The notes below the pieces were generated by a model. It had not been told where the DNA came from. It saw nothing but the letters and a program-made list of their open reading frames with translations, and did no database searches. 32,000 nucleotides of DNA, from NCBI GenBank assembly GCA_000387965.1, contig APJZ01000001.1, forward strand, positions 1-32,000, in the 5' to 3' direction. The position numbers were made by a program, and so were the translations under genes. This document shows, piece by piece, positions 7,774-32,000 of this stretch. Source of the stretch: Candidatus Nanobsidianus stetteri (GTDB lineage: Archaea > Nanobdellota > Nanobdellia > Nanobdellales > Nanobdellaceae). Positions within the stretch are counted from its first letter, which is position 1, and the number at the start of each line of letters is the position of its first letter.

Positions 7774-10700
7774 TTATAAAATATTTAGCCTATAAAATAT
7801 GCTCATTTCATATATTCTTTCTACATTATCTAAACCTTCATTTGAGTCTTTTATTATTATTATGGTATCTGTATCCTTTTCTAAGGTATCTTTATATTTT
7901 CTTATTATATTTAATAGTTTTTCATCGGCATATATTTCTATATTTGCCTTCTGACCTTTTCTTAATTTGTTTTCTTTTCTTATGTCTTGCAATCTCCTTC
8001 TTATTTCCCTATATAACCATTCTTCCTCTAATTCTGGATAATATTTTGTATCAAATCCTATTTTTATAATTCCATAATTAGTCTGTGTAGTTACATAATC
8101 CTTTTCTATATTATCAATCTTTATTTCTTTTACATTTAGGTAATCTTTTAATAATTCTACGATATCTCTATTATTTAGGATTTCAAATAAAATACCTCCA
8201 TCATCTTTATATAAATATAATGTTTTTAATGGTCTTCTTATATTTATATTTATTATATTTCTTAGTTTTAATGCATTTTCAACAATTATATTAAATAATT
8301 CATATTCTTTTTCTATTTTTTCATCTATATATTGTTCTTCAACTTTTGGTAAATCTTCTAAAATTATTGATTCACCTTTCAATCCATATAAATTTCTTAA
8401 TCTTTGATAAATATATTCTGATATAAATGGAATTATAATGGATCCAACATTTATTATATTATATAATGATTTATATATTACAAATAATACTTTATCAGGT
8501 TCTCTCTTTATTCTTTCTCTTGTAGCTTTTATATAAAATCTTGATAATTCTAATATCATATCTTGTAATATTCTTCCTGCCTTCCATATCAAATAGTTAT
8601 CCAATGCATTATATATTTCCTTTTTACTTTTTTCTATGAAATGTAACATATATCTATCTTCCCATCTTAAATTTTCTACATTTATTTTTGCTGGATTTAT
8701 ATTATAATATTTAGAATATTCTTCTAAATATGTTGAAATATTTAATAATGTATTTAATACTTGATATTTAACTTTTATATCTTCCCATTTTAATTTTATA
8801 TCTTCATATGCCTCTACAATAGATCCTAAATATAATCTCATTGTATCTGCTCCATATTTATTAATTATATCATATGGAGAAACAACATTTCCCAAAGATT
8901 TTGACATTTTCCTTCCATATACATCTAAAACATATCCACCAACATATACATTTTTATATGGTATATCATTATAATATAATTCACCCATCATTGCTAAAGA
9001 ATAGAACCAACCCTTAATTTGATCATAATTTTCTGTTATGAAATCTACAGGATATGTATTTGTTGCTACTGTTGCTGAACCAGAATCTACCCATACATCT
9101 AATATATCTGGAATTCTTTTCATTTCTTCTCCACATTTTTCACATTTAAATGTAAATTTATCTACATAAGGTCTATGTAAATTATAATTATATAGATATA
9201 TTATATCATAGTCTCTTGATCCATATGTTCTTACATAATATAGATCATTTACTTGATTTAATATATCATATTTGAAGTTATTTACAATTACTATAGATTT
9301 ATCTTCATATTTATTAAATACATCATATAATTTATTTATATCATTTATTTCACTTTCATAATATATTTTATTTTCTTTAAAATATCTTGACAATAATTTT
9401 TCAGTATAATCTGTAAATTTTACTACTATTATTATTTCCTTAAATTTATATCCAGTCAATTTTTCCAATTCTTTAACATTTCTAACAAATTTTACATGTC
9501 CATTTTTATCAACCCACATTGGTATTGGAATTCCCCAATATCTTTGTCTAGATATTACCCAATCAGGTGCAGATTTTACAGTATTTATAAATGCATTTTT
9601 TGCAGCTTCTGGTATAAAATTAACATTTTCAATATCTAATAATGCTTTTGGTTTTATTGAAGATACATTAATGAATATTTGTTCTGGAGATCTAACGATT
9701 ACTCTATTTCTACATCTCCAACATATTGGATAATCGTGTTCATACCATTCAAAATATATTAAAGCTTTTTTCCTTAATACTTCTAATATAAATTTATAAT
9801 CATCCTTCTTTGCAATCCATCCTTCAAAATATTTTATATCTAAAATTGTTCCTGTCTCATCTGTTGTATTAAATGGAAGGACATTATATTTTCTAGCAAC
9901 TTCATAATCTTCAAAACCACAACCTGGAGCTGAATGAACTAAACCAGTACCTTCTTGTGTATTTACATATTCTTTTGATAGCCAAACTCTAAATACACCA
10001 CTTCTTTCTGATTTAAGTTTTTCTATATAATCCTTTAACTCATCATAGAATAAAGGTTCATATTCTTTAAATTCTAAATCTTTTCCATAAAATTCATCTA
10101 TTATTTCATATTCAATATTTAATTTACTCATTAATTTTTCTAATATATCTTTTGCAACAATCCAATATTCATAATTATTTTCTCTCTTAATATTCATTTT
10201 TATAATTTTGTGATTATTATAATCTAATTCTAATTCTTCAACATAAATATTTGGAACCTTTATTTTTACGTATTTTATTTCAGGATTTACCATAATACCC
10301 AAATTATATAATAATGTCCATGGAGTTGTTGTCCAAATTATATAATATGTATTTTCCATATCTTTTGATTTAAATTTTACATAAATTGCATTTGATATTT
10401 CTTTTTTATATAGAGGATCTTCATATCCCAAATCTATTTCTTGTTTTGATAATGATGTTTGACAATGAGGACACCACCAAACAGGTTTCTTTTCTTTATA
10501 TATTAATTTATTTTCATAACCTTTTGCCAAAGCTTCCCATACCCTTTCAATAAATTCATTTTTAATTGGTAAATATGGGTTATCTATATCTTGCCAGTGT
10601 GCCATATCTTCATAGAATTTTGTAAATTCATTCATTGATCCATATGCAAAATTAAAGCATTCTTTAATAAATTTGTCAACGCCAATTTTTTCTATTTCTC

Positions 10701-11254: not shown

Positions 11255-12163
11255 ATGGAAAATGAAAAAGAAAAAACTGAAGAAAATAAAGAATGGAATT
11301 TTAATCTTAATTTGGAGAAATCAATAATAATAGGATTTATAATATTGGCAATATCAATAATTTTAGGAGCTTATATTATAGCAAATTCAGTATCAAATAT
11401 AAAAGTATATGGATCGTCTAGTAGTTCTTCAAATGAATTACAAACATATTTACAAACACTACCACAGGCACCATTGCCAAATATTACAAATATAGATCCA
11501 GTATATGGAAATCCAAATAATGCAAATGTTGTTGTATATGAATTCTCAGATTATGCATGTCCATATTGTGATATATTTTATTTACAAACATTCCCACAAA
11601 TTAAGCAAAATTATATAGATAATGGAAAAATAGCATGGGTGTATGTAAATTTCCCATTATATTCAATACATCCATATGCAAACATAACATCACAATATTT
11701 AACATGTGTATATGAATTATATGGATTTAATACATGGGAAGAATTTGCAAACTGGAGCTGGTACAATCAAATGCAAAATATATCATGGGATACTTTCTCA
11801 AATCAGCAAGATGTATATAATGTATTTAATAAAGAAGCTCAAGCTTTGGGATTAAATGTTAATGAAATAGATTCATGTGTAAATAGTTCAGAATATTATA
11901 ATCAAATATATAATGAAGAAAATTATGATGCAAGTGAATATGGAATCGATGGAACTCCAACATTTATAATAGCTGTAAAGACATCATCTATTACATTCCA
12001 AACAGTTCAACAGGTTAACAATGCATTAAATCAATTAAAGCAATATGGATTAAGTCCTTCAGTATATACAACACCAGATCATAATTATATAATGTTTGAG
12101 TTTGCAGGGGCTTTACCATATAGTTTCTTTAATAATATATTACAACCTTTAGTATCTGGCTGA
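11255..12163 (+). CDS. Membrane-anchored DsbA-like thiol:disulfide oxidoreductase (thioredoxin fold)
   Basis: An N-terminal TM segment (IIIGFIILAISIILGAYIIA) is followed by a Ser-rich linker. The DsbA-family context VVVYEFSDYACPYCDIFY carries a CPYC active site, and ...GIDGTPTFII lies near the C-terminus. Confidence 0.75.
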   Translation: MENEKEKTEENKEWNFNLNLEKSIIIGFIILAISIILGAYIIANSVSNIKVYGSSSSSSNELQTYLQTLPQAPLPNITNIDPVYGNPNNANVVVYEFSDYACPYCDIFYLQTFPQIKQNYIDNGKIAWVYVNFPLYSIHPYANITSQYLTCVYELYGFNTWEEFANWSWYNQMQNISWDTFSNQQDVYNVFNKEAQALGLNVNEIDSCVNSSEYYNQIYNEENYDASEYGIDGTPTFIIAVKTSSITFQTVQQVNNALNQLKQYGLSPSVYTTPDHNYIMFEFAGALPYSFFNNILQPLVSG

Positions 12164-16629: not shown

Positions 16630-16719
16630 ATGGGCCCGAGGGGACTCGAACCCCTGACCTCCGGCTTTCTTAGGAGCGTAGCCTTATAAGGCCGGCGCTC
16701 CACCTCTGAGCTACGGGCC
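16630..16719 (-). tRNA. tRNA-Ile (anticodon UAU) with an 18-nt canonical intron (plus-strand 16666-16683)
   Basis: Hand-folded cloverleaf: acceptor GGGCCCG/CGGGCCC, D arm GCUC-AGAGGUG-GAGC, anticodon stem CCGGC/GCCGG, loop CUUAUA|A (anticodon at 16685-16687), T arm AGGGG-UUCGAGU-CCCCU, discriminator A. The intron AGGCUACGCUCCUAAGAA sits after position 37. CUUA/UAAG forms a 4-bp helix flanked by two 3-nt bulges (bulge-helix-bulge). No CCA is encoded. Confidence 0.85.
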
Positions 16720-16787
16720 CCTATACATACTTTCACTTATTAATTTTTTATATTTTTTCTTATATACATTTTTTGTAATATAAATAT
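16720..16787. promoter_or_regulatory. 68-bp divergent promoter spacer between tRNA-Ile (-) and mcm (+)
   Basis: Both genes must initiate within this spacer. A/T-rich TATA-like runs lie about 25-35 nt upstream of the tRNA 5' end (taattttttatatttttt, 16741-16758) and about 20-30 nt upstream of the mcm ATG (tatatacatttttt). These cannot be told apart from background AT-richness by eye. Confidence 0.3.
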
Positions 16788-26817: not shown

Positions 26818-27141
26818 ATGACTGCAAGAAAGGGAAAGGGGTTGAGGAGAAAGACAAGGGATAAGTTATCATTACATGTAAGGGAACATGGTAAAATAAA
26901 GATAAGGAAAATATTACAAGAATTTAATATAGATGATAAAGTTGTAATAAAGATTGATCCATCATATAATAAAACAATGCCCCATCCAAAGTACCATGGA
27001 ATGGTTGGAAAAATTTTAGGAAAGAGAGGAGAATGTTATGAAGTTTTAGTAAATGATAAGGGAAAAGAAAAAATTATAATTGTTCATCCAGCACATTTAG
27101 AAAAATTTAAGGGGCAGGTTTCTCCTGTTCAGGCTTCTTAG
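26818..27141 (+). CDS. rpl21e: 50S ribosomal protein L21e (eL21)
   Basis: GLRRKTRDKLS...PHPKYHGMVGKILGKRGECYEVLVNDKGKEKIIIVHPAHL follows the eL21 SH3-like pattern. Confidence 0.9.
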   Translation: MTARKGKGLRRKTRDKLSLHVREHGKIKIRKILQEFNIDDKVVIKIDPSYNKTMPHPKYHGMVGKILGKRGECYEVLVNDKGKEKIIIVHPAHLEKFKGQVSPVQAS

Positions 27142-27664: not shown

Positions 27665-27714
27665 TTTTCTTTATTTATTCAAAAATTTATAAATATTGTT
27701 TTTTATTTTTATTT

Positions 27715-28155
27715 ATGGACTTAAAATTTGATAAAAGGTTATTATTATTAACAATATTCTCAATAATAGGTTTAATTATATATATTTATTTAGAATATGT
27801 TGTTTTAATAAATAATTCATCACCATTATTTTGTTCTATTAATAATACCCCAATAAATTGTGAAAAAGTAATAGAAAGTCAATATTCAAAATTGTTTGGA
27901 ATACCTTTAGAAACATATGCAATTGTATATTTTATAATTGATATATTTCTAGTATTATTATTATATAAGAAAAAATTGAAAATAATTTATAATTTATTTT
28001 ATAGGTTAATTGGTATATTATTTGTAATATTTTCATTATATGTGATGTTATTTTTGATTCATTCAATATGTTTATATTGTTCTACAGCAGATGGAATATT
28101 GATTATAAATTTTGGGATAATTTTATATTATTATAAAAAGAAAGTTTTCGAATAA
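27715..28155 (+). CDS. VKOR-family (vitamin K epoxide reductase-like) membrane thiol oxidoreductase
   Basis: Loop cysteines CSINNTPINC are followed by VIESQYSKLFGIPLETYAIVYF (the VKOR motif S.ys.lfGiP), and the redox CxxC (CLYC) lies in the last TM. I moved the start to Met43 of the track ORF (27715), because the first 42 codons overlap the minus-strand gene and are low-complexity. Confidence 0.75.
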   Translation: MDLKFDKRLLLLTIFSIIGLIIYIYLEYVVLINNSSPLFCSINNTPINCEKVIESQYSKLFGIPLETYAIVYFIIDIFLVLLLYKKKLKIIYNLFYRLIGILFVIFSLYVMLFLIHSICLYCSTADGILIINFGIILYYYKKKVFE

Positions 28156-28187
28156 AATTTATAATTGATGAAATTTTTTAGATATAT

Positions 28188-28376
28188 ATGAAAAATAGTA
28201 TAGCAATAGATATGGTAATAATTATAGTTATTGCATTAGTTATTTTGATTTTAGCAATTTTGTTTGGATATAAGATATTTTTAGGTGGAAATACAGCATC
28301 AAATCAATCATTCAGTTTTATTAATAATAGCTTTAATAACGTTACAAATCAATCAATTACAAATATAATAGGATGA
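28188..28376 (+). CDS. Small membrane-anchored, sequon-rich protein (mini pilin-like paralog 3)
   Basis: MKNSIAIDMVIIIVIALVILILAILF... has the same architecture as the two ORFs at 21.2-21.7 kb. Its tail has NQS, NNS, NVT and NQS sequons. The stop overlaps the start of the 869-aa gene (ATGA). Confidence 0.5.
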   Translation: MKNSIAIDMVIIIVIALVILILAILFGYKIFLGGNTASNQSFSFINNSFNNVTNQSITNIIG

Positions 28377-30982
28377 GAGGAAAGATTTTTGATGATTTTA
28401 TGATGTTTATAGGTTATTATCTTCCAATATTTATTATAATTCTTGCAGGAGTTATATTTATTTTAACTTCAATATTTAAATATTACCATATTAATAATCC
28501 ATCACAATATTATATTTCAATACAGAACCAAAACAATCAAAATAATCAAAACAGTAATCTGAATACTATAAATTCAACAATTATGGTAGATATATATTAT
28601 CAAAATGGATATGATATATATTATGTCCCATCATTTATTGAAAACTTAAGTAATTGGAATATATTTTATAATATTACAAATACTTATAGCAACATTAGTA
28701 ATAATAATATATTACAAATAAATCCCGAAAATATAACAAATATTAATTCAACAACTTTTAATATAAATTCATTAAGTAATGTTAAATTAAACTCTACAAT
28801 TAGTTTATCAAACAATACTTTTGAAGGAAATAAAGTTACATATACATATCAAGGAAATACATATGAATGTAGTATTAAAGGAAGTAATAATATACAATAT
28901 GAAGCAGGTAGTTTTATATATTTTTGTATATTATGTGAACCACTAAATAATCAAAATAATCAAAACATACAAAATTACTATTTAAATGAACCTGAATATT
29001 TAAATATAACCCCAGCAATATATTTATTAAGTAATTCATATCCAAATATTCCAAATACTCAATATTATAATTATACAGTAAATAATGTAGAAATAGTTAA
29101 TGGAACATATGTAGTTATAACTTTATCAAATAGTAATGGAGGATATTCTATGGAAGATTTTCAAAATATATTAGTTACAATTGGTCCTCCTTTAAGTAAT
29201 TATATAAATACTACCCCATATTATGGAGATAATGTAGTATTTTTAGTTTATTATGCTGGTAAATATTATGCATTACCTTCATGGTATGCTGGAGAAAATA
29301 ATGGAAATTATTATTTCTTTATTAATCTATTGAATATCCCTTCATTATATAATAGTAATAGTTTTGGATGTAATTTTTTACCAATATTTGTTGGATTTAG
29401 TAATGAAAATCTATTACCATATTTAAATGGAACAATTGGTGGGGATCCTTATGCATTAGATCCTAGTAATCCTTCTAATGCAATTGAATATGATAATGGA
29501 TTAAATGTATTTCCAATATATGTTAACTTTTATTCATACAATGGAAATGTAGAAGATAATTCATATTGCGGTAATTCTAATGGATTTTTGAATTGTTATC
29601 AAAATATTCTATATGAAAATGTATTACCTCCATATAATAATGTAACTATTTATGTAAATGCAACAGGACAAATTTCTCCATATGTTGGATCATATGGACC
29701 TTTCGAAGGATTAGCTATGGATGCTGGACAAAATCAAGGATCATATGCATTAATTACATCAAATGTTTTACAAAATACATTTTCTCAATTATCTCAATCA
29801 TCAAATGGATTGGGATTACAAACATTTGTATATTTTTCTGGAATACCATGGGAAGATTCTCCAGGTAATGGCATTACTAGCTCAACTCCAGAAGTTGCAG
29901 ATGCAGTAGTACTATCATATGTTAGTTATAATAATCAATTCTATGCTGATACAGTACAGGATTATAATGCTGATGATTCAATAAGTAATCAGGAATGCGA
30001 TCCTACTTCTGGAGAATGTTATACTATAGGAAATCAAGATATAGGAATAAATGTTGGAGGTTATACATATTTGCCTCTTAATTTCCCAATATTTATGTAT
30101 GAATATGGATGGACATCTACTTTTCCTCCAAGTCCAGGTTCTGGTGATTCTTCAGGTTATTATGTTGGAATATTAGAATATAATAGTACACAAGGATTGG
30201 GATATTTTTTAACTACTCAATATACAAATAATCCAAATTCAATTGGATATTATGATTATTATTATTCAGGATCTGGAGGGGGTATTTCGACCTGTTCGAA
30301 AAATATATCTATATTAGGGAGATCCATAAGCATACAGTATCCTTGTTGGGGTCTCAATTATTATTTCGTAGAAGATACTAGTGGAAGTACAAATGGATAT
30401 TCAGGATCTGATTATTTTGCCTTTATGCCTCAAGATCAACAAGGAAATTCATATTATTCTCAATATGGAGTATTTTGGTTATATAATTGGTTCCAATCAG
30501 GAAGTAATGATATGTTGAATATATTCTTCTTAATGAATGGAAATATTTTCAATTATTCCCTTGCTTTAGAACAATATGAATGGTGCGGATTGTTAAGGTG
30601 CTATAGAGCATACGCAATACCGCCAAACCCACCAGCATCTACAATAAACGGAGAACCAATATTCGCACAATCATATATAAATGCGTATAATACGGCGTTT
30701 AATCAACAATCAAATTCTCAAAGAGCTTTATATAATTATAGAGCGTTTACTTATAGTGAAGTAAATAGTAATAATTTTGTACCTGGAACTTTTGGATATT
30801 ATGAATATTATGCAAGTAGTTCACAATCTCTTACTATAAGCTACTTACAAGATGATGCAAATTATTATAATGGGAATCCTTATTTGTTCATTTCAGCAGG
30901 TTCTGGAGGAGGATCTGGTTATATGTATCTAGATTGGGTTATAGTAACATATGGAGTTCCTTATGTTGTGAGTGTATCCTAG
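28373..30982 (+). CDS. Large N/Y/S-rich secreted or surface-anchored glycoprotein candidate (869 aa)
   Basis: The N-terminal hydrophobic anchor is YYLPIFIIILAGVIFILTSIF. A manual scan finds about 18 N-x-S/T sequons. There are 12 cysteines, several in closely spaced pairs (CILC, CGNSNGFLNC, CDPTSGEC, CGLLRC). The C-terminal ...GYMYLDWVIVTYGVPYVV resembles the end of LamG/DUF2341-type jelly-roll domains; that recollection is weak. Confidence 0.65.
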   Translation: MRGKIFDDFMMFIGYYLPIFIIILAGVIFILTSIFKYYHINNPSQYYISIQNQNNQNNQNSNLNTINSTIMVDIYYQNGYDIYYVPSFIENLSNWNIFYNITNTYSNISNNNILQINPENITNINSTTFNINSLSNVKLNSTISLSNNTFEGNKVTYTYQGNTYECSIKGSNNIQYEAGSFIYFCILCEPLNNQNNQNIQNYYLNEPEYLNITPAIYLLSNSYPNIPNTQYYNYTVNNVEIVNGTYVVITLSNSNGGYSMEDFQNILVTIGPPLSNYINTTPYYGDNVVFLVYYAGKYYALPSWYAGENNGNYYFFINLLNIPSLYNSNSFGCNFLPIFVGFSNENLLPYLNGTIGGDPYALDPSNPSNAIEYDNGLNVFPIYVNFYSYNGNVEDNSYCGNSNGFLNCYQNILYENVLPPYNNVTIYVNATGQISPYVGSYGPFEGLAMDAGQNQGSYALITSNVLQNTFSQLSQSSNGLGLQTFVYFSGIPWEDSPGNGITSSTPEVADAVVLSYVSYNNQFYADTVQDYNADDSISNQECDPTSGECYTIGNQDIGINVGGYTYLPLNFPIFMYEYGWTSTFPPSPGSGDSSGYYVGILEYNSTQGLGYFLTTQYTNNPNSIGYYDYYYSGSGGGISTCSKNISILGRSISIQYPCWGLNYYFVEDTSGSTNGYSGSDYFAFMPQDQQGNSYYSQYGVFWLYNWFQSGSNDMLNIFFLMNGNIFNYSLALEQYEWCGLLRCYRAYAIPPNPPASTINGEPIFAQSYINAYNTAFNQQSNSQRALYNYRAFTYSEVNSNNFVPGTFGYYEYYASSSQSLTISYLQDDANYYNGNPYLFISAGSGGGSGYMYLDWVIVTYGVPYVVSVS

Positions 30983-30996
30983 AAATTGTTAAAAAA

Positions 30997-32000
30997 TTAG
31001 CTGGAAGGATTGTATACTTGCTGTGGGGCAACAAAATTTGACAAGTATGTGCCTGCAGGAATATTGATATTTTCTCCATATGAGATTACAGTTCCATTTG
31101 GTTGTACTAACACTAATCCTCCACCACCTAATCCATAATGTCCATATAGTTCTGTCTGATATGCTACTGTTCCTGTTGTGTTTGTCCAATCATATACTGG
31201 CGAGTTTCCTGGTAGTCCTGCTGCATATGTGCCTGGTGTATTCATTGCTTCTACAAAGTTTGATACCCAATTATCATATGTATAAAATCCAGCAATATTT
31301 CCTGGGTTTATATTATTAGCTTCTATTACATAATATGTTTGTCCATTTATTATTGCTTGTTGAATTGGTACTTGGCTATTATTTGCATCAATTACATATA
31401 AATCCTGTAAAGGCACATACGGTTGACCATTTATTGGATCAGTTTGTCCAACAAATTGATTATTTAATTGAACTATTTGATTATGATTTTGTATTATTGT
31501 ATTTGAATATTGACCATCCCATATTACATTCTTTATTTCACTTCCGTTAGGTAATATTAACTCACCTTCAGGATCTATATGTCCATTGTAATTTATTGTT
31601 TGACCATTTGGTACAAATGCTATATATCCAGATCCTAAATATTGTACATGTTCATTATTTGAAGGTAAAGAATGTATAGCATTTAATCCAACCATTATAA
31701 AATATACTATACTAGTACCAGCACCAACTATTATTAATCCATATCCTATTAATTTACCTCTAGGACTTTTATCTGCGTTCATTATATATAATCCTTCCGA
31801 GATTGAAACCCTTGCGGGAGATGGTAATGCTGAAAGCATAATTTTTGGTCCATATTCTAATATTTTATATTTTATTTCTTCTAATTTTTTGTCTAAATAT
31901 TCTGGAAGTTTTTCAATTTTATCTTTAATTGCTATTCCATATTCTAATATTCCACCTTTAACTTTTTGAAGTCCATAATAGGTTTTATCTCTTACATCTT
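30997..32000 (-). CDS. Membrane-anchored extracellular protein, 5' end outside window (at least 334 codons)
   Basis: The track ORF starts at 31839, but hand translation shows the same frame stays open for 53 more full codons to the window edge (...DVRDKTYYGLQKVKGGILEYGIAIKDKIEKLPEYLDKKLEEIKYKILEYGPKI-MLSAL...). That is improbable by chance in stop-rich AT DNA. A charged N-terminal part is followed by the TM segment KLIGYGLIIVGAGTSIVYFIMVGL. The N/Q/G/Y-rich, Cys-free ectodomain contains the repeat INGQ.Y...YVI[DE]ANN twice. Confidence 0.6.
   Translation of the reverse strand, partial: DVRDKTYYGLQKVKGGILEYGIAIKDKIEKLPEYLDKKLEEIKYKILEYGPKIMLSALPSPARVSISEGLYIMNADKSPRGKLIGYGLIIVGAGTSIVYFIMVGLNAIHSLPSNNEHVQYLGSGYIAFVPNGQTINYNGHIDPEGELILPNGSEIKNVIWDGQYSNTIIQNHNQIVQLNNQFVGQTDPINGQPYVPLQDLYVIDANNSQVPIQQAIINGQTYYVIEANNINPGNIAGFYTYDNWVSNFVEAMNTPGTYAAGLPGNSPVYDWTNTTGTVAYQTELYGHYGLGGGGLVLVQPNGTVISYGENINIPAGTYLSNFVAPQQVYNPSS

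Follow-up and report, generated by a model that had tools for sequence, protein, structure and literature searches.

The window analysed here, i.e., the whole stretch of 32,000 nucleotides from Candidatus Nanobsidianus stetteri Nst1, ends in a locus of four open reading frames (ORFs), Nst1_034 to Nst1_037, encoding a VKOR-type enzyme, a 62-residue micro-protein, an 869-residue protein (Nst1_036, hereafter 036) and a 378-residue protein transcribed towards it (Nst1_037, hereafter 037). The 036/037 pair is restricted to Nanobdellales symbionts and their crenarchaeal hosts and diversifies far faster than its neighbours, and copies of it lie in host genomes. An earlier note on this DNA had described the locus as a candidate surface or host-contact module and had guessed at an ectosymbiotic nanoarchaeon, and this guess is correct, the source organism being a hot-spring symbiont. 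All four ORFs are kept in Nanopusillus, Nanobdella and YN1 and are hence real genes, save that VKOR itself has no place at the Nanobdella locus. Their coordinates, together with the putative promoter elements and the spacer between the convergent genes, are as follows.

27715 to 28155, plus strand: VKOR Nst1_034 (arCOG03749), 146 residues, four transmembrane (TM) helices, matched by Pfam PF07884 and the NCBIfam VKOR family.
28188 to 28376, plus strand: Nst1_035, 62-residue single-pass membrane micro-protein with one TM helix, an N/S-rich tail and four N-glycosylation sequons.
28373 to 30982, plus strand: Nst1_036 (arCOG10265), 869 residues, the ORF being 100% identical to Nst1_036.
30997 to 32000, minus strand: Nst1_037 (arCOG10353), 378 residues, of which 46 to 378 lie inside the window.
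27686 to 27693, both strands: palindrome TTTATAAA, at -29 of the divergent genes Nst1_033 (minus) and VKOR (plus), putative bidirectional TATA box.
28158 to 28164, plus strand: TTTATAA box 30 nt 5' of the 62-residue ORF, putative promoter of a bicistronic operon of the small ORF and Nst1_036.
30983 to 30996, no strand: spacer AAATTGTTAAAAAA, 14 nt between the convergent stop codons; read on the minus strand, it forms a T6 run 3' of Nst1_037.

The arCOG10265 and arCOG10353 assignments are those given in the supplementary data of PMC3655853 and PMC4935971. Within the locus, the ATGA at 28373-28376 overlaps the stop codon of the small ORF with the start codon of the 869-residue ORF, and the same 4-nt overlap was identified in Nanobdella, Nanopusillus and YN1 (loci L001, L003 and L026), which upholds the translational coupling claimed before. 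The small ORF is separated from VKOR by a gap of 32 nt. A TTTAWA box 28-30 nt before the start codon was found for 8 of the 32 tabulated ORFs, against a chance background of 1.5% per gene, whereby all eight belong to the first or sole gene of a likely unit. VKOR possesses such a box at -29 and the small ORF one at -30, while none precedes the 869-residue gene, which suggests two transcription units, VKOR alone and a bicistron of the small ORF and 036. On the opposite strand, 037 had been described as running off the window with its stop codon 14 nt from that of 036; both statements hold, as the reading frame is open to the window end and 45 of the 378 residues of the full protein lie beyond it.

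The predicted architecture of 036 consists of a signal-anchor (residues ~8-40), an N/Q-rich linker and a beta-rich ectodomain of ~800 residues, the only hydrophobic segment of the protein being the N-terminal one. Its composition is biased towards N (14%), Y (11.9%) and S (10.4%), and K and R together account for 13 of the 869 residues (1.5%) as compared to 14% in the neighbouring proteins. Counting confirmed the N-terminal anchor and exactly 12 cysteines (residues 166, 185, 188, 333, 399, 408, 542, 549, 641, 658, 738 and 743), of which only C333 (29 of 29) and C166, C185 and C188 (25-26 of 26) are kept throughout the sequences covering them. C399 and C408 are retained in 24 of 29, and the remaining pairs are located in variable loops. 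Most of the variation of 036 falls into the loops ~391-420, 541-570, 631-660, 735-750 and 811-840, which carry the non-conserved cysteine pairs, and the cysteine counts of the orthologues are mostly even. The approximately 18 sequons noticed earlier were counted as 18 N-X-S/T sites, yet composition alone predicts 18.4 +/- 3.7; the number therefore holds as a count and not as an excess, and seven of the sites are nonetheless retained in at least 22 of 24 orthologues.

Neither Pfam, NCBIfam, PHROGs, PADLOC nor the PDB sequences contained a match for 036, and among 1.84 billion cluster representatives its profile found 120 relatives only, mostly fragments. The structure prediction proposed for both large proteins was carried out and left their folds unassigned: AlphaFold2 modelled 036 from 29 homologues with a predicted local distance difference test (pLDDT) score of 55.8, too poor for fold assignment, and Foldseek returned nothing for this model against the PDB at E<=0.001. 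For the C-terminus of 036, which had been likened weakly to LamG/DUF2341, Pfam gave no hit at E<=1; the Foldseek lectin matches have E above 1 on a model of pLDDT 56, whose poor quality leaves a fold-level resemblance possible, and the best PDB profile match, the IL-21 receptor, has an E of ~0.2. As neither a profile nor a confident fold supports it, the LamG/DUF2341 label was rejected. The same applies to thermopsin (peptidase A5, PF05317), for which no Pfam hit was obtained and hhalign against the thermopsin of S. ohwakuensis gave a probability of 0.5%.

A function of 036 as S-layer (surface layer) protein had also been considered. No S-layer domain of Pfam or NCBIfam matched 036, and the published candidates, Nps_00760, which equals Nst1_169 (Wurch et al., PMC4935971), and MJ1_0160 of Nanobdella (Kato et al., bioRxiv 10.1101/2023.10.27.564410), are other, unrelated genes outside the 036 family. 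The identification of 036 as an S-layer variant was hence abandoned.

The convergent partner 037 is predicted to combine a K/E-rich helical cytoplasmic N-terminal part, a TM helix at ~128-151 and, according to the AlphaFold2 secondary structure, a beta-rich ectodomain of ~225 residues, the latter containing no cysteine and four sequons. Its AlphaFold2 model (88 homologues) reached a pLDDT of 58.2, which is likewise too poor for fold assignment, and Foldseek against the PDB gave nothing at E<=0.001. No match for 037 was obtained in Pfam, NCBIfam, PHROGs, PADLOC or the PDB sequences; 1060 homologues were found, including the host-type forms of ~248 residues described below. According to hhalign, 036 and 037 are unrelated to each other. 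Both thus belong to uncharacterised families and are predicted to be membrane-anchored and extracytoplasmic, in agreement with the earlier description. Nps_01635, a paralogue of 037, is among the proteins that proteomics revealed in N. acidilobi (PMC4935971 supplement).

The convergent adjacency of 036 and 037 was identified in at least 20 loci, whereby the pair is present in Nanobsidianus, Nanopusillus spp., YN1 and Nanobdella and occurs twice in N. acidilobi. The Nanobdella protein in the 037 position is weakly recognisable (hhalign probability 70%), and a homology search started with it returned nothing. When Nst1 is compared to its closest sequenced relative, 036 and 037 are 73-74% identical, as opposed to 94-99% for the flanking genes. 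The ratio of non-synonymous to synonymous substitution rates (dN/dS) amounts to 0.50 for 036 and 0.47 for 037, the flanks giving 0.03-0.17, and the dS of the pair lies ~1.8-fold above that of the flanks; at the protein level the pair evolves ~five-fold faster than its neighbours. This pattern fits the report that "hypothetical external" proteins possess the highest density of non-synonymous single-nucleotide polymorphisms (nSNPs) in Nanoarchaeota populations (Jarett et al., PMC6142677).

The 037 profile was scanned against one genome per species and matched in nanoarchaea, in Sulfolobales archaeon Acd1 (three loci), which is the inferred host of Nst1, in Caldivirga (three), in Stygiolobus and in a Sulfolobaceae isolate; searches at the protein level gave further hits in Acidianus, Vulcanisaeta, Saccharolobus islandicus and Sulfurisphaera ohwakuensis. 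The part of the window which recurs in hosts (tblastn) comprises the two convergent 3' halves.

30520 to 31648, no strand: "cassette" of 036 residues ~716-869 and 037 residues ~162-378.

Between the window and Acd1 (L014) this cassette shares 80.5% nucleotide identity over 1149 bp, and blocks like it are also found in L004, L005, L009, L012, L015-L018, L020 and L022. The host loci are flanked by host genes with a guanine-plus-cytosine (G+C) content of 0.41-0.48, as compared to 0.32-0.38 for the cassette and 0.27-0.31 for nanoarchaeal DNA. The usual host 037 is an intact protein of ~248 residues which combines an N-terminal anchor of its own with the 037 ectodomain and has no cytoplasmic domain, and hundreds of such variants occur in metagenomes. 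It is typically convergent with the last 150-210 codons of 036 only. Longer forms of 036 were identified in Acidianus (290 residues), in S. ohwakuensis (497 residues) and in one Stygiolobus, where 036 is almost complete; most host 036 copies are cut to 150-500 residues and anchorless, and in some host copies the reading frame is interrupted by a frameshift or stop. The dN/dS among host copies amounts to 0.24-0.52, a range which fits function or an inherited signal alike, and in neighbour-joining trees host and symbiont copies interleave. In Caldivirga sp. MU80 (L020 639-3447; also L012 and L017) the cassette directly adjoins a 429-residue tyrosine recombinase with an SSV-type integrase domain, and the short 037 gene of MU80 is frameshifted; ~2.9 kb are common to two Caldivirga genomes and 1.5 kb are common with a Stygiolobus contig.

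The second system is that of YN1 (AP031373) and its host YN1HA (AP031374; PMC11420986). The YN1HA genome of S. ohwakuensis (L002 8001-10319) contains a 497-residue 036 fragment and, at 9516-10319, a 267-residue 037 homologue; the latter is 68% identical to YN1 037 (E=4e-125), which itself is barely alignable with Nst1 037, and the 036 fragment shares 64% identity with YN1_3820, rising to ~93% over the first 190 residues. The YN1HA pair occupies an island of low G+C content, with a thermopsin gene, a resolvase and a transposase of the IS605 type in its vicinity. Lineage-matched copies of the pair are present in host genomes of two independent systems. The YN1 paper (PMC11420986) does not mention the YN1HA host copies, and among the searchable papers Podar et al. 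(2013) is the sole one to mention a transfer of 036/037: in one sentence the pair is named among transfer candidates with the host, and in a table of that paper the best hits of Nst1_036 and Nst1_037 are neighbouring genes of S. solfataricus. The exchange of the pair with host genomes was beyond the reach of the earlier note. Saccharolobus islandicus L.D.8.5 (L023 7001-8608) encodes a 208-residue homologue of the 036 C-terminus convergent with a 321-residue 037 homologue at 30% identity, which may indicate that the pair has been in Sulfolobales for longer. This pair lies in an island of insertion sequence (IS) elements, toxin-antitoxin and HEPN/NTase genes.

The micro-protein Nst1_035 is 80-87% identical within Nanopusillus/Nanobsidianus and 58% in Nanobdella, its sequons being conserved too, and the presence in all three genera documents the small ORF as real. 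Pfam, NCBIfam, PHROGs, PADLOC and the PDB sequences contained no match for it. Its designation as a pilin-like anchor did not endure: the N-terminus (MKNSIAID...) contains no [KR][GA] cleavage motif, neither Class_IIIsignal nor a pilin family of Pfam or NCBIfam matched at E<=1, and within ~8 kb to each side no gene for a pilus ATPase, platform protein or prepilin peptidase was found in Nanopusillus, Nanobdella or YN1. Downstream of Nst1_037 and outside the window, ~9 collinear orphan proteins are encoded (L003 11805-18429; L001 11433-17991; L026 9480-14337), all of which carry a hydrophobic helix at the N-terminus and lack any Pfam match. They include three micro-proteins of 43-63 residues which resemble the 62-residue ORF (one at 37% identity) and a cysteine-rich 500-residue protein. 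The module may hence extend well past the window, over Nst1_038-047.

The VKOR gene is securely assigned, as had been claimed: PF07884 matches with 75.8 bits (cutoff 27.5, E=4.5e-21) over profile positions 2-130 of 134, and the four-TM protein, with hydrophobic segments at 7-33, 63-85 and 88-123, carries both the loop pair C40/C49 and the CXXC motif C119-L-Y-C122. Its role as dedicated folding partner of 036 is a different matter. Compared to N. stetteri AB-777_F03, VKOR is 96% identical with a dN/dS of 0.10, i.e., housekeeping-like. A synteny comparison across relatives, as had been proposed, retained the order of VKOR, small ORF and 036 in Nanopusillus, in N. acidilobi and in YN1, which has diverged deeply, but no VKOR was found at the Nanobdella aerobiophila locus (the search being confined to this locus), though its 036 orthologue keeps 12 cysteines. 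Nor does a VKOR lie beside the second N. acidilobi pair, a distant 036 homologue termed P0110 or any host copy. Moreover, collinearity extends over the entire stretch between NMD3 and TYW3, housekeeping genes included, and for this reason VKOR adjacency alone carries little information. A candidate partner of VKOR is encoded elsewhere in the window, at a distance of 16 kb.

11255 to 12163, plus strand: DsbA-like thioredoxin-fold protein, membrane-anchored, with a CPYC motif and several sequons (Thioredoxin_4 E=1.2e-18, DSBA E=3.6e-10).

This protein probably acts as redox partner of VKOR, and its membrane-anchored CPYC architecture at 16 kb distance is the ground on which a general VKOR/DsbA pathway is proposed. 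Taken with its own TATA box, VKOR is thus probably a monocistronic general disulfide enzyme and a neighbour rather than a proven member of the module. To our knowledge, the organism is regarded as being devoid of quinone biosynthesis, which bears on the electron acceptor of VKOR. In another nanoarchaeon a homologue of the DsbA-like gene adjoins EF-1alpha (L024 19099-20028).

The rest of the window, which has a G+C content of 25.7%, encodes archaeal housekeeping functions (L21e, RpoF/Rpb4, DUF655, fibrillarin, Nop, MCM, EF-1alpha and IleRS). Upstream of VKOR, the 3' ends of L21e (plus) and Nst1_033 (minus) overlap by 35 nt at 27107-27141; Nst1_033 is a 185-residue membrane protein with two TM helices and a weak, sub-cutoff match to the bacterial PH domain, and is syntenic in Nanobdella and YN1. 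A 15-nt inverted repeat (30910-30924 and 31622-31636, 93% complementary), both arms of which encode G-S-G-Y at the 036 C-terminus and the start of the 037 ectodomain, is probably due to chance in AT-rich DNA. A type I 3-dehydroquinase gene (AroD; 2148-2798, minus) stands out with a 34% G+C stretch as compared to 25% for the window and is the third candidate for gene transfer between Nst1 and its host in Podar et al. (2013). Finally, a 90-nt tRNA (16631-16720, minus) matches the full Rfam model; its anticodon was not named by ARAGORN, and it probably carries an intron or insertion.

Considering these data, the locus is suggested to combine a stand-alone VKOR with a lineage-specific envelope module, in which 036 and 037 would form a surface complex acting in host recognition or attachment; to this reading a probability of about 0.5 is assigned. 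VKOR, expressed from its own promoter, would thereby serve general extracytoplasmic disulfide formation together with the DsbA-like protein 16 kb off. A leaderless bicistronic operon would yield the 62-residue micro-protein as a glycosylated single-pass protein and, by translational coupling, 036 with a large, type-II-anchored, N-glycosylated, disulfide-braced and beta-rich ectodomain, while the convergent gene would supply 037 as a bitopic protein whose cytoplasmic domain is helical and whose ectodomain comprises 225 residues. One surface complex may then be built up from the 036 C-terminal domain and the 037 ectodomain, since exactly these halves are inherited, duplicated and transferred together. 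Such a complex would be expected to face the host cell for partner recognition or attachment rather than to belong to the bulk S-layer. The host-contact idea of the earlier note thus persists with regard to the ectosymbiotic nanoarchaeon and to a surface-anchored orphan pair of plausible contact proteins, but without its VKOR, pilin and S-layer parts. What is left is a new, uncharacterised variant of an archaeal surface glycoprotein module, and a host-contact reading of it fits the report that it is not yet known which proteins make up the attachment organelle of Nanobdellota (PMC11420986).

Several observations weigh against this reading. Both AlphaFold2 models are poor, and the Foldseek searches made with them gave no significant hit. 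The adjacency of the pair alone would also bring about a co-transfer of 036 and 037, and the fast evolution of surface proteins can equally result from viruses or relaxed constraint. Proteomics of N. acidilobi did not reveal the 036 orthologues, a result rendered uninformative by there being 13 tryptic sites in 869 residues, and MJ1_0040 is not among the Nanobdella surface proteins highlighted by Kato et al. Furthermore, the P0110 homologue (L024 9001-11118, from a metagenomic nanoarchaeon, ENA ERZ27245618), a more K/E-rich distant relative of 036 with 705 residues (hhalign 98.5%), stands alone between FBPase and MCM, without VKOR, micro-protein or a 037 partner.

Among the alternatives, a structural role within the envelope survives best, although it is considered unlikely. 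According to it, the pair would have no particular function in host contact and would be a part such as an S-layer-associated or anchoring component whose diversification is driven by viruses or other surface pressure, and the host copies would be incidental, decaying DNA received via a cytoplasmic bridge. The surface topology and composition of the pair are consistent with this, as are the truncated, anchorless state of 036 in most hosts and the frameshifts and stops in some copies, and cytoplasmic bridges between symbiont and host are documented (PMC11420986). However, host 037 is mostly intact and equipped with a new N-terminal anchor, three copies are found in Acd1, and the ~248-residue variants occur by the hundreds in metagenomes. 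Moreover, the arrangement of TM helix and ectodomain without cytoplasmic domain arose in both the Yellowstone and the Japanese systems, which decay alone can hardly explain.

Rather improbable, and slightly more so, is the assumption that the pair is cargo of a crenarchaeal mobile element, i.e., an integrative element or an unsampled virus carrying for instance a receptor-binding or exclusion module, which was captured and expanded by nanoarchaea. The SSV-type integrase beside the Caldivirga cassette (L020; Pfam PF00589/PF16795) points into this direction, and so do the DDE transposase remnants by the Acd1 copies, the IS605 elements and toxin-antitoxin-rich islands by others, the cassette flanks common to Sulfolobales and Thermoproteales, the multiple copies with host and symbiont sequences interleaved in phylogeny, and the divergent S. 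islandicus pair, which would suggest an older crenarchaeal history. Yet no match was found by tblastn in 50,697 phage and archaeal-virus records and 72,556 plasmids, in an IMG/VR scan, or in PHROGs or PADLOC. In addition, full-length 036 and the micro-protein hold one syntenic slot across nanoarchaeal genera differing by 60% in sequence, the cassette is intermediate in G+C between nanoarchaeal and host DNA, and no terminal direct or inverted repeats were found at the cassette borders. No tRNA integration sites adjoin the host cassettes. Origin and vehicle can be considered separately here: a symbiont origin appears favoured by the full-length 036, its micro-protein partner and the fixed syntenic slot across genera, and a mobile-element vehicle by the integrase, transposase and IS neighbours, the flanks common across host orders and the S. 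islandicus pair.

The least supported rival is the original idea that VKOR, a mini-pilin and the 869-residue protein form one co-transcribed unit for the dedicated oxidative folding of a fibre, pilus or S-layer variant: the order and orientation kept in Nanobsidianus, Nanopusillus, N. acidilobi and YN1, the gap of just 32 nt and the 4-6 conserved cysteines of 036 with mostly even counts among orthologues speak for it, but separate TATA boxes, the missing VKOR at the Nanobdella locus and beside the second N. acidilobi pair, P0110 and the host copies, the DsbA-like partner elsewhere, the collinearity of the whole region, the housekeeping-like dN/dS, the missing pilin or class III profile and pilus machinery and the S-layer candidates residing in other genes render it improbable. 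The eye-catching adjacency of VKOR is most simply explained by general housekeeping, which is the corrective message of this work.

Returning to the envelope module with a 036/037 surface complex, a more far-reaching version of it may be formulated, which is put forward as speculation of low probability. 036 and 037 could constitute a polymorphic partner-recognition system of an inter-species archaeal symbiosis, in which host 037 alleles derived from the host's own symbiont lineage would gate docking. The symbiont would display the hypervariable 036 head and the 037 ectodomain, and the host would present a close relative of the latter, gained either via the bridge between the two cytoplasms or by means of an integrative element. 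A match of 037 with 037, or of the 036 C-terminus with 037, would then decide which cells dock and build the bridge, or else the host protein would act as a decoy that blocks docking. If this was true, the pair would be the first molecular determinant of DPANN host specificity, and symbiont and host would share a recognition gene through repeated transfer. As Nanobdellota and DPANN are widespread, 036/037 offer a concrete and testable candidate pair for recognition, attachment and bridge opening, and one of the two systems with lineage-matched host copies, YN1 with S. ohwakuensis YN1HA, is in culture. A recurrent gene flow between ectosymbiont and host is documented which concerns surface genes rather than metabolic genes.

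Comparison with known systems places the locus as follows. In the VKOR-DsbA pathway of bacteria and archaea VKOR replaces DsbB, and the four-TM VKOR with its loop cysteines and CXXC motif resembles this arrangement, as does the CPYC protein of the same window; the difference is that the two genes are neither fused nor adjacent here and that the pathway is probably a general one rather than dedicated to 036. With archaeal type IV pilins, Nst1_035 and several products of the downstream cluster share a short polar N-terminus that leads via an acidic residue into a long hydrophobic helix, but Nst1_035 differs from these and other class III proteins in lacking the [KR][GA] motif, a profile match and pilus genes nearby. 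Archaeal S-layer and anchoring glycoproteins (SlaA/SlaB of Sulfolobales, MJ1_0160, Nps_00760) are, like 036, large, beta-rich, sequon-rich, K/R-poor extracellular proteins of thermoacidophiles, which tryptic proteomics misses for the same reason; unlike these, 036 has no sequence relation to them, is N-terminally anchored, is accompanied by a micro-protein and a bitopic partner, and is far more variable than a lattice protein is expected to be. Closest to the partner-recognition idea, by analogy only, is TraA/TraB of myxobacteria, an example of polymorphic surface receptors which control exchange between cells, where a fast-diversifying ectodomain is likewise combined with a second membrane protein, related alleles reside in both cells, and the interacting partners are known to fuse or to bridge their cytoplasms. 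There is no homology between the two systems, and homotypic binding would be hypothetical here; the partners of the nanoarchaeal system belong to different phyla, and their common alleles stem from gene transfer instead of kinship.

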